Source: an uncultured Aquiluna sp. (GTDB taxonomy: Bacteria > Actinomycetota > Actinomycetes > Actinomycetales > Microbacteriaceae). Taken from it: 64,000 bases of DNA. The translations under genes were made by a program, and so were the position numbers. The notes under the pieces are model-generated. The model ran no database searches. It worked only from the letters and a program-made list of their open reading frames with translations, and was not told where the DNA came from. Where the stretch lies: contig CAJYLB010000001.1 in the NCBI GenBank assembly GCA_913775595.1, positions 930,001-994,000 on the forward strand, written 5' to 3'. This document shows positions 2,802 through 15,832 of this stretch, in pieces. How positions within the stretch are numbered: the first letter of the stretch is position 1; every line of letters starts with the position of its first letter.

Positions 2802-3722
2802 GTGAAGCCAGCTCCGACCCGCCAATTAGCAATCCTTGCTGTGGTGGTGGCAGGTGGCTTCATGGCGGTCCAAGCAAGGGTCAACTCTGGTTTGGCAGCT
2901 GAGGTTGAAAGCGGCTTTCTGGCTGCGCTAATTTCTTTCTCGATTGGGCTCGTTCTCATCTCTGCAGTCTCCCTACCTCGTAAGGACTTCCGGACTGCTC
3001 TTAGAGACTCTCTCGGCGCAATTCGCGCGGGCAAACTTAAAGTCTGGATGCTGTTCGCAGGAGCTTTGGGCGGCTTCTTTGTTCTGACCCAGGGATTAGT
3101 TGCGGGCATCACCGGTATTGCGCTTTTTTCCTTGGGGGTTGTTACGGGCCAAACACTCTCAGCCTTATTGATTGATGGCAAAGGGCTCTTGGGTCTTGCA
3201 AGACGCAAACTCACCGGCAATCGCCTGTTCGGCTCGGCAGTCGCGATTGCTGGTCTAGTTCTTGCCTCCAGTCCAACTGTTGCGGGCTTTGACATCGCCA
3301 TTTTGGTTCCCGTGGTGGCCGGGATAGGAATCGGGCTTCAGGATGCCATCAACTCTCAGGTTGGCCGCGAAAGCGGTTCTGCCTCGGTAGCCACGTTTTT
3401 CAATTTCCTTGCAGGAACGCTGTTTCTGCTCTTGATGTTTCTATTGAGCCCAGTACAAGCCGGATCAGTCGACCTGGCCACCATTAACCCGGTTCTCTTC
3501 TTGGGAGGACTAGTTGGCGTCGGCTTTATCCTCATCCGGGTTGTGGTGCTGCCAGTGATTGGTTCGCTTGCAACTGGGCTATCGCTACTTGCGGGTCAGC
3601 TACTGGTTTCCCTGGTGCTTGATTTCTTAGCTCCGGTTGCAATCAGGGATATCACAGTCTGGACGCTCGCGGGGCTGCTGCTTGTGTTCGCAGGCGCCTC
3701 TTTTGCGATGCTCCGCCGCTAG
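2802..3722 (+). CDS. DMT family transporter (YdcZ/DUF606-like, two repeats)
   Basis: AVQARVNSGLA and GLQDAINSQVG repeats, about 10 TM segments. Start moved to GTG 2802, 7 nt after a TAGGCT -10 hexamer. Confidence 0.75.
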   Translation: MKPAPTRQLAILAVVVAGGFMAVQARVNSGLAAEVESGFLAALISFSIGLVLISAVSLPRKDFRTALRDSLGAIRAGKLKVWMLFAGALGGFFVLTQGLVAGITGIALFSLGVVTGQTLSALLIDGKGLLGLARRKLTGNRLFGSAVAIAGLVLASSPTVAGFDIAILVPVVAGIGIGLQDAINSQVGRESGSASVATFFNFLAGTLFLLLMFLLSPVQAGSVDLATINPVLFLGGLVGVGFILIRVVVLPVIGSLATGLSLLAGQLLVSLVLDFLAPVAIRDITVWTLAGLLLVFAGASFAMLRR

Positions 3723-4312
3723 AGCTTCTCGATCAGAACATCGGGGTGGTTGTCGAATCGATAACCCTTGCCGCGTGCTGTTCTAACAATGTCCTCATAG
3801 AGCCCGAGCTTCGAGCGGAGTCTCCGAACGTGTACGTCAATGGTCCTAAAGTTCGGTGTGGCCTCGCCGCAGCGCTCAGAGATTGACGCGATCGTCTCGC
3901 GGGTCACAGTCTCGCCTTCGTTTTCGATAAGAAGTGCGAGCAGCTCATACTCCTTGCAGGTCAGCGGGGCGTGAGTGCCATCGACAAAGACCTTCTTGCG
4001 GCTGAGGTCAACAACAACGCCCCTGGCTGCCTCGACCTCTTCGGGCTCTGGCTTCGCAGCTCGCACTGCCCTTGGTTCTCCTAGGGCAAGCCTGGTTATG
4101 TCGATTGCCCTTCCGCTTGCGTCCTCAGGCGCAATCGCTAGAGCTGCGTAGGTGTCATTTGCTGCTGCCGGGACTAGCTCTGCGAGTTTCCCCTTGAGGG
4201 CAGATGCGATATCCGCGAGGGTAAGGCCCGCTTGCTGGGCCTGCTGCTCAGTTATGCCTACATAGAGTGCGAAGCCCTTGGCCTCGGTCTGCTTTTTGGT
4301 TGCTGTTGTCAT
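3719..4312 (-). CDS. Orphan winged helix-turn-helix transcriptional regulator (OmpR/PhoB-type DNA-binding domain, no receiver domain)
   Basis: C-terminal LTCKEYELLALL...RTIDVHVRRLRSKLG...IVRTARGKGYRF. The N-terminal half lacks receiver-domain motifs. Confidence 0.85.
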   Translation of the reverse strand: MTTATKKQTEAKGFALYVGITEQQAQQAGLTLADIASALKGKLAELVPAAANDTYAALAIAPEDASGRAIDITRLALGEPRAVRAAKPEPEEVEAARGVVVDLSRKKVFVDGTHAPLTCKEYELLALLIENEGETVTRETIASISERCGEATPNFRTIDVHVRRLRSKLGLYEDIVRTARGKGYRFDNHPDVLIEKL

Positions 4313-4411
4313 TTTTATGAGTCCTTTGTGAGTGCATGGAAATTGGGTGCACGAATCACGTGCGTTTGTTGGGGTGCTGGTGCCTATTTGCTAATCAGTA
4401 AGCAAGGTTGA

Positions 4412-4501
4412 TTAGCGGCACATGCGCATGCACATGCACATTGCCATCGAGCAGGAGAACGCGGCGCCCGTGGCGCTCATCTCGACTGATCGACTACTCA
4501 T
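4412..4501 (-). CDS. Putative Cys/Met-rich leader peptide, 29 aa (MSSRSVEMSATGAAFSCSMAMCMCMRMCR)
   Basis: Hand translation. ATG at 4501 lies 8 nt after a TTGACA-N18-CATTAT promoter; stop at 4414-4412; same strand as and about 100 nt upstream of the wHTH gene. Confidence 0.7.
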   Translation of the reverse strand: MSSRSVEMSATGAAFSCSMAMCMCMRMCR

Positions 4502-4509
4502 TGCTGTAA

Positions 4510-4539
4510 ATAATGGGCCAACAGCCCTGCGTGTGTCAA
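4510..4539 (-). promoter_or_regulatory. Sigma-70-type promoter for a leaderless transcript
   Basis: -35 TTGACA (4539-4534), 18-nt spacer, -10 CATTAT (4515-4510). Confidence 0.55.
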
Positions 4540-4564
4540 ATTCTTACGCTTTGTTACGGATCTC

Positions 4565-5377
4565 TTAGACCCTGGCTAGAAGCCACTCGAAGAGGTCCTC
4601 TTCAACCTCGCTCTTGCAAAGATCATTGAGTAGCTCGTGGTGTCCGCCGGGGTAGATCTTGAGCTCCTTGTCCGGACTCGCAATTGCCTGGTGAAGGCCC
4701 ATGGAGTTTAGGTGCGAGGTTGAGGTGTCTTTGTTTCCGTGGATGATCAGCGTAGGCGCCTTCCAGTTATCGGTTGCGGCCCAAACCTGATCCGAGACCT
4801 CAAGCACCGTCTTTGCAACTAGGTTCTTTGCCTTGCCCTCGTAGAACAGCTCGTCTTTTTGAACCTCTGCCAAAAAGGCCTTGTCTCTTGAAAGAGCCTC
4901 GATGCCTGGCCTCGGAAGGGGCATTGGAGCACCGGGTGCAACTCTGGTCGAGACTGATGCCAGGATTCGCTCCCAGCGCTTCGAAGGAGTCTGCATGGCA
5001 GCGGAGCTGATCACGGCAGCTGAGATGTTGCCGCGTTCGCGAACTATGCTGGCGGCAGTAATAAGCCCGCCAAGGGAGTGTCCATAGAGAACGGTTGGAA
5101 GTCCGACAGGTAGACGGGAGCGAGCCTGCAGGTGGAGAGCAACGCCCTGATTGACATCAACCAGTCCACGCTCACCGGCAGTCCGACCGTGTCCGGGAAG
5201 ATCAAAGGCATAGACATCGATACCCTGCTGGTTGAGCTTTGGGATTAGTTCGCTGTAGAAAGAGAGATATCGCTCTGAATACTCCCCAAGACCGTGCATC
5301 AATAAAAGCTGCGCCCTTGGGCTTGCCGACTTCCAAGTGAAAGCCGCTACCGGAGCGCCGATGTCCCATGTAGCCAT
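4565..5377 (-). CDS. Alpha/beta hydrolase, lysophospholipase/monoglyceride lipase family
   Basis: HGLGEYSERY, DLPGHG, GHSLGG nucleophile elbow, HGNKD, HHELLND. Confidence 0.85.
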   Translation of the reverse strand: MATWDIGAPVAAFTWKSASPRAQLLLMHGLGEYSERYLSFYSELIPKLNQQGIDVYAFDLPGHGRTAGERGLVDVNQGVALHLQARSRLPVGLPTVLYGHSLGGLITAASIVRERGNISAAVISSAAMQTPSKRWERILASVSTRVAPGAPMPLPRPGIEALSRDKAFLAEVQKDELFYEGKAKNLVAKTVLEVSDQVWAATDNWKAPTLIIHGNKDTSTSHLNSMGLHQAIASPDKELKIYPGGHHELLNDLCKSEVEEDLFEWLLARV

Positions 5378-5540
5378 GAGTAAAGGCTAGAACAACCTCA
5401 TGCCAAACTCGCAGCTGGCTCTCCGAAATGGTGCAGCAGATAGCTAGTAAATAATTCTGAGGCTGTCTGGTGGGCTAACCTATAGGTACCTATGCGCCCA
5501 GCGTCGCGCGAGCTACTTCTTTAGCTAAGGACTAGAACCA

Positions 5541-6977
5541 ATGAGTGAAAAAGCAAACATCGGTGTCGTTGGGCTGGCCGTGATGGGATCAAACCTTGCG
5601 CGCAACCTCGCCTCTAGAGAGGGCAACAGGGTTGCCATCTACAACCGCAGTGTTGAAAAGACCAACCAGCTAACAAGTGAGCACCCAGAGGCGAACTTTG
5701 TTGCTAGTGAGACCATCGATGACTTTGTGGCATCGCTCGCAAAGCCAAGGACCGCAATCATCATGGTCCAGGCAGGGGCTGGCACCGACGCCGTAATCAG
5801 CCAGCTCACGGAAAGATTTGAGAAGGGCGACATCATTGTCGATGGCGGGAATGCCCTTTACACAGACACCATGAGACGCGAGAAAGAGGTCTCGGCCAAA
5901 GGAATTCACTTTGTTGGTGCAGGTATCTCAGGTGGCGAAGAAGGTGCCCTAAGAGGACCATCGATTATGCCCGGAGGAACCAAGGAGGCCTACGCAACCC
6001 TGGGCCCAATTCTTGAGTCCATTGCCGCGGTCGCAGAGGGAGAGCCATGTGTTACGCACGTTGGTACCGATGGCGCAGGGCACTTTGTGAAGATGATCCA
6101 CAACGGCATCGAATACGCCGACATGCAGCTGATCGCAGAGGCCTACGACATGCTCCGCCAAGCAGGAGGTTTCTCGCCGGAAGAAATTGCAGACATTTTC
6201 TCTGAGTGGAACAAGGGTGAGCTCGAGAGCTACCTAATTGAAATCACAGCTGAGGTTCTCAAGCAGAAGGACGAAAAGACCGGCAAGCCACTTGTTGATG
6301 TCATCCTGGATGCCGCAGGCAGCAAGGGCACGGGTGTCTGGACAGTGCAGACAGCTCTAGATCTTGGAACCCCGGTCTCGGGAATTGCAGAGGCCGTTTT
6401 TGCTCGCTCGCTTTCCGCGCAGTCAGCTCAGCGGGCGGGAAAGCCAGAGTTACCCGCCGCCAACCAGGTATGGGCGGTCGAAGACAAGCCAGCTTTTGTT
6501 GAGGCAGTTCGCAGGGCTCTCTACGCTTCCAAGATCGTCGCCTACGCCCAAGGCTTTGACGCAATCAGGGCAGGTGCCAAGGAATTCGACTGGGAGATCA
6601 ATCTCGGAGAGGTTGCAAGAATCTGGCGCGGAGGCTGCATCATCAGGGCGCAGTTTTTGAACCGCATAACTGAGGCTTACCGCAAGGACGAGAATCTCTT
6701 GTCGCTGCTCTTTGATGAGTACTTCGTTGCGGCTATTGCAGGAACCGTTGCGTCTTGGCGAGAGATTGTTGCCATGGCAGCACTGACTGGTGTGCCATCG
6801 CCTGCGTTTGCATCATCGCTGAGCTACTACGACGGACTAAGGGCAGAGAGGCTCCCTGCCGCGCTGGTGCAGGGACAGCGAGATTTCTTCGGAGCTCACA
6901 CCTACAAGCGAGTCGACGCCGAGGGCAGCTACCACACAATGTGGTCTGGCGATCGCTCAGAAATAAAGACCGACTAA
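5541..6977 (+). CDS. gndA: NADP-dependent 6-phosphogluconate dehydrogenase
   Basis: GLAVMGSNLARN, GISGGEEGA, VKMIHNGIEY, KGTGVWT, QRDFFGAHTY. Confidence 0.97.
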   Translation: MSEKANIGVVGLAVMGSNLARNLASREGNRVAIYNRSVEKTNQLTSEHPEANFVASETIDDFVASLAKPRTAIIMVQAGAGTDAVISQLTERFEKGDIIVDGGNALYTDTMRREKEVSAKGIHFVGAGISGGEEGALRGPSIMPGGTKEAYATLGPILESIAAVAEGEPCVTHVGTDGAGHFVKMIHNGIEYADMQLIAEAYDMLRQAGGFSPEEIADIFSEWNKGELESYLIEITAEVLKQKDEKTGKPLVDVILDAAGSKGTGVWTVQTALDLGTPVSGIAEAVFARSLSAQSAQRAGKPELPAANQVWAVEDKPAFVEAVRRALYASKIVAYAQGFDAIRAGAKEFDWEINLGEVARIWRGGCIIRAQFLNRITEAYRKDENLLSLLFDEYFVAAIAGTVASWREIVAMAALTGVPSPAFASSLSYYDGLRAERLPAALVQGQRDFFGAHTYKRVDAEGSYHTMWSGDRSEIKTD

Positions 6978-15784: not shown

Positions 15785-15832
15785 ATGGACTGCAACTGCG
15801 GTAAGGATTCTTGCAACTGCGGCAAGCACTAA
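15785..15832 (+). CDS. Putative 15-aa Cys-rich micropeptide MDCNCGKDSCNCGKH
   Basis: Hand translation. AGGAGG SD (15775-15780) overlaps the nrdF stop; two CNCGK repeats; ORF ends before the operon terminator. Confidence 0.65.
   Translation: MDCNCGKDSCNCGKH

Follow-up and report, generated by a model that had tools for sequence, protein, structure and literature searches.

The closest described relatives of the element analysed here are the polycysteine leaderless short open reading frames (sORFs) of mycobacteria, which were predicted at an earlier date (PMC1262725) and of which Ms5788A and others are attenuators; in Ms5788A, according to bioRxiv 10.1101/834739, the Cys-codon tract sequesters the ribosome-binding site (RBS) by pairing, and a stalled ribosome frees the RBS. 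In the trpL, hisL and ilvB leaders a short open reading frame (ORF) rich in the sensed codons forms strand 1 of a set of alternative helices. In Rho-dependent attenuation of the tnaC type the end of the sORF adjoins a C-rich, G-poor untranslated stretch. To our knowledge, Cys-codon leader peptides of actinobacteria are known only ahead of biosynthetic operons. Here an sORF of related design is described from an uncultured Aquiluna sp. of the Microbacteriaceae (assembly GCA_913775595.1), in a window of 64,000 nucleotides, the whole stretch of DNA analysed, which spans positions 930,001 to 994,000 of contig CAJYLB010000001.1. The sORF lies on the minus strand, which was read over positions 3500-4800 together with the ORF listing, and precedes a gene for a receiver-less winged-helix regulator, with which it forms a real, conserved and unannotated cis-regulatory unit. 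The explanation favoured here, with a probability of about 0.6, is that the sORF encodes a leader peptide with a leaderless start and a regulatory role, comparable to the polycysteine sORFs of mycobacteria, and controls a GlnR-like regulator.

Within its own genome the sORF is exceptional. Its last 13 residues, CSMAMCMCMRMCR, include 4 Cys and 5 Met (9/13), the top Cys/Met score in the 1.245-Mb genome, where the runner-up of 201 candidates reaches 5 and the long ORFs contain 0.61% Cys and 1.93% Met. The Met-Cys run taken alone might be a product of slippage, because it is a 4-copy tandem repeat of 6 nt, but the top score genome-wide combined with the conservation across families indicates more than chance. 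No second similar sORF, as in a 'ribulon' set, was found among the 201 candidates, and this uniqueness argues for action in cis on one gene. The sORF promoter is the sole promoter-like match in 3500-5600, a region for which shuffles average 0.6; its -10 element is separated by 8 nt from the sORF ATG at 4501, no Shine-Dalgarno (SD) sequence lies in between, and transcription is predicted to start at or 1 nt before the AUG. The original prediction, made from the letters of the window, had described an sORF in this position and strand with a 9/13 Cys/Met end, a TTGACA-N18-CATTAT promoter and leaderless layout, a stop codon in one arm of an 8-bp hairpin followed by a second hairpin, no U-tailed terminator, and no annotated ORF. 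All of these observations were reproduced at the coordinates of Table 1. The promoter geometry fits a leaderless transcript and is conserved, no U-tailed terminator occurs between sORF and regulator, and orthologous peptides are essentially unannotated: of 10 looked up among 15 billion collected proteins, 9 have no entry and one is listed as a 'hypothetical protein'. Metatranscriptome contigs cover regulator and leader in 4 runs (for example 4300-4468 in X3); starts, ends and levels are not readable from these contigs, and RNA libraries can carry DNA. High contig depth at 4343-4441 corresponds to a block common to several species. A short palindrome of species-dependent sequence was seen by eye in the spacer between the -35 and -10 elements (4515-4527, minus strand; same place in loci L002-L031), examples being GGGCTGTTGGCCC, AGCCAGCTGGCT, GGAAAACATTTTCC and TAGTCATCTGACTA; it may be the terminator of the upstream gene, nested in the promoter.

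Table 1. Features of the sORF-regulator locus, in window coordinates
Feature	Position	Strand	Description
Leaderless sORF	4412..4501	(-)	29 codons + TAA, peptide MSSRSVEMSATGAAFSCSMAMCMCMRMCR
sORF promoter	4510..4539	(-)	TTGACA 4539-4534, N18, CATTAT 4515-4510
Hexamer ATGTGC (Met-Cys codons), 4 copies	4418..4441	(-)	Tandem Repeats Finder (TRF): period 6, 4.0 copies, 88% matches
Helix H1, inside sORF	4464..4476	(-)	GCGCC-ACG-GGCGC, present in minimum free energy (MFE) fold
Helix P1, 5' strand (Cys/Met codons)	4417..4433	(-)	GUGC(A)UG 4433-4427, GUGCC 4421-4417; RNAalifold consensus
Helix H2	4390..4416	(-)	GCUAAUCA 4416-4409 with UGAUUAGC 4397-4390
C-rich near-invariant block	4348..4384	(-)	GGCACCAGCACCCCAACAAACGCACGUGAUUCGUGCA; 37 nt, 19 genus leaders
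Helix H3	4349..4363	(-)	GCACG-UGAUU-CGUGC
Regulator SD sequence AAGGA	4322..4326	(-)	9 nt ahead of ATG; conserved in alignment
Receiver-less OmpR/GlnR-type winged-helix regulator	3719..4312	(-)	197 aa
Candidate operator GTAAC-AAAGC-GTAAG	4543..4557	(-)	Ends 3 nt upstream of -35; opposite strand CTTAC-N5-GTTAC

The original prediction had named a conserved Met/Cys-rich sORF with synonymous variation, ahead of homologous regulators, as a check, and its absence there as a refutation. The check came out positive. Of 44 Microbacteriaceae loci with the orthologous regulator, 41 have such an sORF 5' of it (19/19 in the genus, 22/25 in other genera), and in 38 of these 41 the element TTGAC lies 36-38 nt ahead of its ATG. 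The peptide has the form MS[STN]R...A[MF]xCSM[AC]MCMxxC[R] in the genus, MSNSAAS..VMMCCMMML in another low-GC genus and MT......GMMMP....VMCCRMC[AR] in the high-GC Microbacteriaceae. In the Micrococcaceae a GTG-started poly-Cys sORF is present in 13 of 21 loci, ending in ...SCCRM[SQRH]A or CCCRMHA directly before the stop codon and located behind a promoter of the type TTGCGG-N17-AAGACT-N7; some loci of a third family have Cys/Met-rich ends such as ...MMVMMPRAMMLSACGCCCC. Adjacent Cys residues (CC or CCC) occur in the high-GC Microbacteriaceae and in 12 Micrococcaceae loci, and CC in some members of the genus; in the window the order is C-S-M-A-M-C-M-C-M-R-M-C, with 4 Cys and no two of them adjacent. 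The dual sensing of Met and Cys that had been proposed finds no support in this comparison: only Cys codons and an Arg-Met pair are common with the Micrococcaceae. In three families the order upp (uracil phosphoribosyltransferase), sORF, regulator is seen (loci L044, L045, L050, L032, L040, L067, L082 and L095), with a tadA-like deaminase beyond upp in two loci; in the window the upstream neighbour is an alpha/beta hydrolase instead of upp.

The codons themselves bear signs of selection on translation. Across the loci the length of the sORF differs, 22 codons being the minimum and 37 the maximum, but the reading frame is preserved, and the start codon is fixed at the position of the predicted transcription start site. 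The last Cys stands one residue ahead of the stop codon in 30 of 38 sORFs, and the stop codon varies in type (TAA, TAG or TGA). Synonymous variation, as anticipated, is present: Ser2 is encoded by AGT in 11 cases, TCT in 3 and TCA in 2, and Cys by TGC or TGT. In the high-GC sORFs CGA encodes the Arg that precedes Met in 13/13 cases, whereas this codon accounts for 3.2% of the Arg codons (315 in total) of the adjacent regulator genes, and the Cys codons TGT and TGC are used in a ratio of 26:11, compared with 11:72 in neighbouring long ORFs. The sensor position of the high-GC sORFs is thus made up of rare, wobble-read codons, a pattern that fits a slow-decoding design or a nucleotide-level pairing constraint, possibly both.

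The locus resembles the polycysteine systems in being an unannotated, predicted leaderless sORF of an actinobacterial host with Cys codons near the stop, in sharing a transcript with the gene under control without a U-tailed terminator, and in the complementarity of its Cys-codon region to the downstream leader or RBS. It is no simple member of their set, however, and differs in its target, a transcription factor and not a Cys-metabolic operon; in its single copy per genome, as opposed to a multi-locus 'ribulon'; in the additional enrichment of Met codons, with which the Cys codons of the window alternate; in its conservation in at least two, probably three, families as against one genus; and in that RBS occlusion is not evident in the genus Aquiluna. 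Unlike trpL, hisL and ilvB, with which it shares the short ORF rich in sensed codons as strand 1 of alternative helices, the window leader has no intrinsic terminator, is predicted to be leaderless without an SD sequence, and has a regulator as its output gene. Like tnaC-type leaders, the window sORF ends next to a C-rich, G-poor stretch in an organism with Rho, but the ligand-dependent arrest at the stop codon of that type finds no support here. A literature search that did not extend to the supplements of bioRxiv 10.1101/834739 returned no description of the sORF-regulator unit, and no listed paper joining 'polycysteine' with genera of the Microbacteriaceae or Micrococcaceae.

The leader RNA contains four helices. 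The 3' strand of P1 is formed by the first 11 nt (4384-4374) of the C-rich block; RNAalifold pairs the codons GUGC.UG.....GUGCC with GGCACCAGCAC, which together make up P1, and also recovers H3. The inverted repeat of H2 (GCTAATCA/TGATTAGC, 4390-4397/4409-4416) is perfect over 8 nt, and the sORF stop codon TAA (4414-4412) sits within its 5' arm. The 37-nt block, GGCACCAGCACCCCRACAAACGCACGTGATTCGTGCA, is invariant or nearly so in the 19 aligned genus leaders and present in a single copy in the window genome, and of the 62 genus genomes 49 contain exactly one match to covariance model R1, as do 24/24 high-quality ones. The structure composed of H1, P1, H2 and H3 was scored against slid partners and 500 shuffles. 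In a plain MAFFT alignment 87.5% of the cells are paired, compared with at most 42.6% for slid partners, with 10 compensatory pairs; in an alignment fitted to a covariance model (CM), which comprises 24 sequences from three genera and leans towards the structure, the corresponding values are 94.4% and at most 42.3%, with 19 of 31 pairs compensatory. The covariation score was reached by 0/500 shuffles in either alignment. Compensatory pairs amount to 7/7 in H1 and 8/8 in H2 in the CM alignment (5/7 and 4/8 in the MAFFT alignment), and to 2/5 in H3, where they come from L011 and L035 (CM alignment). In P1, 98.5-100% of the cells are paired, and 2/5 inner pairs are compensatory across genera (CM alignment). 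Outside the three genera the downstream leader differs, so that the sORF is the feature shared across families. A search of Rfam 15 gave no relevant match for the window, the only row being L19_leader with 18 bits against a gathering threshold of 36, and zero matches for 9 other loci.

Two further elements of the leader were noted. An H3-like element (ACAAACGCG-GUGAUUGAUU-CGCG) was found by eye in the sORF-less loci L037 and L038, approximately 210 nt upstream of the regulator match; its retention in genomes that lack the sORF suggests that H3 may have a role of its own. The first six bases of the predicted transcript, AUGAGU (4496-4501), are complementary to ACUCAU (4317-4322), which is located between the SD sequence and the AUG of the regulator. 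This pairing is present in the MFE and centroid folds, and in the genus the complement is found together with an AGU second codon; duplexes of the 5' end with the regulator start region have energies of -4.6 kcal/mol for self and -3.6 kcal/mol for non-self combinations, an effect among kin sequences to which one subclade contributes most.

The gene downstream of the sORF is followed by a convergent gene, and no cysteine-metabolism gene is found downstream of the sORF, its place being taken by the winged-helix regulator. In a Pfam search the protein matches Trans_reg_C (PF00486) alone, over residues 114-186 (E 1.5e-16), with no match to Response_reg, which agrees with the receiver-less OmpR-type factor postulated originally. 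The closest solved DNA-binding domain is that of GlnR, an orphan OmpR-type regulator of actinomycetes (PDB entries 8hml/8hig), with 36% identity, and the structural matches are the effector domains of GlnR and PhoB. Unlike GlnR, the protein has no receiver-like domain but an unrelated helical domain in its N-terminal ~90 residues, modelled with a predicted local distance difference test score (pLDDT) of 74-82; a fold search with this domain gave no significant match, the best Z score being 2.8, with a few ribbon-helix-helix rows at Z ~2.5. Phylogenetically, the designation of the regulator as an 'orphan' is wrong. A full-length, single-copy ortholog is present in 292 of 301 Microbacteriaceae genomes (98/101 genera), in 59 of 61 Micrococcaceae genomes and in 50 of 61 genomes of the third family, and one genome each of 14 further families of the order yields domain-level matches only. 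All ortholog annotations are generic ('winged helix-turn-helix domain-containing protein'). The window genome contains three OmpR-type winged-helix genes.

According to the explanation favoured here, ribosomes would translate the 29 codons, the last third of which, rich in Cys and Met, constitutes the 5' strand of P1. The partner strand would be provided by the C-rich block 30-40 nt downstream, such that P1 encloses the stop-codon hairpin. When charged Cys-tRNA, and in the Microbacteriaceae probably also Met-tRNA, is scarce, the ribosome would pause on the Cys/Met codons; P1 and H2 would then stay open, the leader would refold and the amount of regulator would change. As to polarity, starvation would raise regulator output, a direction chosen by analogy with the mycobacterial systems and in view of the RBS (AAGGAUUCGACACCAUG), whose sequence complements the Cys-Arg-Met codons in a number of genera of high GC content. 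The probable binding sites of the regulator would then be the RTWAC-N5-RTKWC repeats in the promoters of metY, cysK and its own gene.

For the output step, the original prediction of Rho-dependent or translational control remains plausible, given the presence of Rho, the C-rich spacer and the RBS complementarity. In 8/13 of the high-GC loci that carry UGUCGAAUG the RBS reads AAGGAUUCGAC[AG][CA]CAUG, a sequence with complementarity to the Cys-Arg-Met codons (UGUCGAAU/AUUCGACA), in agreement with the mechanism described for Ms5788A. In the genus the Cys/Met codons pair with the block upstream of the RBS and not with the RBS. The duplex of the sORF 3' codons with the pre-RBS region, calculated with RNAduplex, is stronger than that of an N-terminal control in 31 of 34 leaders, and within the genus self combinations reach -15.5 kcal/mol compared with -14.1 kcal/mol for non-self combinations (permutation p 0.0007), a small effect among kin sequences. 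Occlusion of the SD sequence relieved by a stalled ribosome found no support as output step, footprint-masked folding of 34 leaders having no consistent effect; the mean unpaired probability of the SD sequence is 0.57 in the free and 0.55 in the stalled state. The spacer between sORF and regulator contains more C than G in 37/37 loci (median C/G 1.87; in the window, C 0.35 and G 0.14). With this C-rich, G-poor spacer and Rho present in the genome, Rho-dependent attenuation is plausible. In the genus an output step that is Rho-dependent or based on RNA stability is more likely than direct RBS occlusion. Canonical U-tailed terminators between sORF and regulator were found in two loci of other genera, L035 (sORF 1155-1247) and L040 (sORF 2405-2509).

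A candidate operator just upstream of the sORF promoter offers a connection to other genes. The motif GTWAC-N5-GTWA(N) or its complement occurs at 5 sites in the 1.245-Mb genome, 3 of which are intergenic, compared with 0.3 expected; these are located at the sORF promoter, 80 nt 5' of metY (assigned by NF005872, 785 bits) and 27 nt 5' of a clpC-like gene. The half-site RTWAC resembles GTnAC, the half-site of GlnR boxes; unlike in GlnR, the spacing of the candidate repeats is 10 bp. The metY site, AAAGTTAC-N5-[GA]TTAC, is present in 28/28 genus genomes, in 18 of them in strict form, with a spacer that is free to vary, and loose sites elsewhere in the metY loci of the genus number 1 in 112,743 nt. 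In 27/27 genomes of other genera the metY promoters contain, as judged by eye, [GA]T[TG]AC-N5-[GA]NKWC with a TTG-type -35 element 7-8 nt downstream. On its pattern of conservation, a metY repeat with a free 5-nt spacer is the footprint of a transcription-factor site. The composite promoter pattern is found in 46 + 4 loci, all of them Microbacteriaceae metY, and in 0/30 Micrococcaceae metY loci, where RTTAC repeats 5' of metY are likewise absent (0/30). Upstream of cysK (TIGR01139) a similar site lies at ~85 nt, a position that it retains in 12 of the 30 genomes of the genus, and the operator RTWAC-N5-RTKWC alone occurs at 15 sites in 14 regulator loci. Because its domain is GlnR-like, its own promoter carries a site and the genome has few regulators of this type, the regulator probably binds RTWAC-N5-RTKWC at its own, metY and cysK promoters; the shared operator-like repeat makes the link of the sORF-regulator unit to sulfur metabolism a circumstantial one. 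Direct repeats RTTAC-N5-RTKWC at metY were also noted in L097 752-777 (G000:C1:741551-741576), L101-L130 and L161-L187. The clpC-like site (L100 ~2919-2933, G000:C1:1019718, 27 nt upstream of the gene) may be a chance match.

The window genome, a single contig estimated to be 97% complete, has no match to the PAPS (3'-phosphoadenosine 5'-phosphosulfate) reductase or sulfite reductase families, while sulfhydrylases are present. With no genes for assimilatory sulfate reduction detected, reduced sulfur is probably what the organism relies on, and for a streamlined aquatic genome with this reliance a sensor of sulfur amino acids would matter. Methionine genes in the sister family are under an element of a different kind, the S-adenosylmethionine (SAM) riboswitch SAM-IV (RF00634), which is a functional counterpart for Met-gene control and lies ahead of the Micrococcaceae metY in 3/3 cases (L134 1301-1417, L141 2877-2993, L146 2879-2995). 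SAM-IV is carried by 37/39 genomes of the Micrococcaceae, in 1-7 copies per genome, by 24/39 of the third family and by 20/101 of the Microbacteriaceae. The largest of these searches was run under stricter filters, and the counts represent one evolutionary contrast and not a statistic. No SAM-IV was found in the window genome or before the Aquiluna metY. This contrast fits a shift of methionine control to the sORF-regulator circuit in the family with the Met run.

A number of results weigh against a Cys/Met-codon leader that controls the regulator and, through it, sulfur genes. Three genomes of one genus (L037-39) retain the regulator without the sORF. In the window no two Cys codons are consecutive, Met codons alternating with them in a run that is a hexamer repeat. 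The outer pairs of P1 are uninformative because they are invariant within the genus. When the 34 leaders were folded by partition function with a ribosome footprint at the last Cys codon, the SD sequence did not open consistently, and pairing of the sORF 3' codons with the pre-RBS region barely beats composition-matched shuffles (mean z -0.87). The terminators of L035 and L040 fold with or without the footprint, and the search for antiterminators there was negative. With regard to the regulon, the composite metY pattern occurs in 0/96 regulator loci, and the strict operator sites at sORF promoters (9, in 8 loci) are all inverted.

Three other explanations have been considered, and each of them accommodates part of the evidence. 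The product of the sORF could be a functional Cys/Met-rich micropeptide, co-transcribed with the regulator and involved in metal binding or redox sensing, or acting as a partner or anti-factor. Conservation of the CC-R-M-C-[AR] motif at the peptide level in two families and of the N-terminal M-S/T would suit such a role, as would the ortholog annotated 'hypothetical protein' and a regulator N-terminal domain for which no ligand or fold is known. The middle of the peptide, however, is free to vary where the RNA hairpin covaries, and the conserved codons coincide with one strand of a conserved helix, with the stop codon placed within a hairpin. Rare wobble codons, moreover, accumulate at positions from which a protein-coding gene would exclude them, length (22-37 aa) and Cys number are variable, and an NCBIfam search with the sORF peptides gave zero family matches, which together make a micropeptide unlikely.

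Nascent-chain arrest on a small molecule (SAM, a thiol or a metal ion) instead of on tRNA charging is improbable. The placement of a specific C-terminal motif 1-2 codons ahead of the stop in 30/38 sORFs resembles that in stop-proximal arrest peptides, and the rarity of SAM-IV in the Microbacteriaceae (20/101) relative to the sister family (37/39) counts in favour of this explanation; yet the motif is not fixed, as the genus endings MCMCMCR, CMSVCR, CMLSCR and MML illustrate, and a Met-Cys hexamer of variable copy number is more readily reconciled with the counting of codons than with a defined sequence for arrest. Still less credence is given to a structured leader RNA, binding a protein or a ligand, in which the open frame would be incidental. 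Four covarying helices, a 37-nt near-invariant block that is more conserved than the peptide, and, by eye, an H3-like hairpin with the same loop words in the sORF-less L037 and L038 speak for it, but the downstream leader differs by genus whereas the sORF is common to the whole family and the sister family, indels have left the start codon, the frame and the placement of the stop intact, and no Rfam family matches in the window or in 9 other loci.

The regulatory leader peptide may be part of a larger arrangement, which is put forward tentatively and with considerably less assurance: a two-tier sulfur amino acid circuit that would be ancestral to several Micrococcales families. In this circuit, wobble-decoded Cys (and Met) codons would set the dose of the receiver-less GlnR-like factor, which would autoregulate and drive metY and cysK via RTWAC-N5-RTKWC; the Microbacteriaceae would have gained the Met-codon run and with it assumed the role over methionine genes that SAM-IV has in the sister family. 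A translational sensor of the 'ribulon' type would in this way be wired into a classical regulon. The circuit could thereby explain the absence of SAM-IV from most Microbacteriaceae in comparison with its use by the sister family.

For a device of this type a transcription factor is a new kind of target, and the one that it appears to gate here is near-universal in the Microbacteriaceae and Micrococcaceae, two families with hundreds of genera and many environmental and industrial strains. If the leader-peptide explanation is true, the regulator family gains a signal, charged tRNA-Cys/-Met, together with candidate targets in metY, cysK and its own promoter. Genome annotation gains a conserved small ORF that was formerly unannotated.

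A separate Cys-rich ORF of 15 codons is found elsewhere in the window, at 15785-15832 on the plus strand. Its product, MDCNCGKDSCNCGKH, contains four Cys residues arranged as two CxC pairs, and the ORF is preceded by a strong SD sequence, AAGGAGG, and followed by a GC-rich hairpin. It may encode a metal-binding micropeptide or a leader, and it is flanked on one side by a ribonucleotide-reductase-beta-like gene and on the other by a gene resembling ZIP-type metal transporters.

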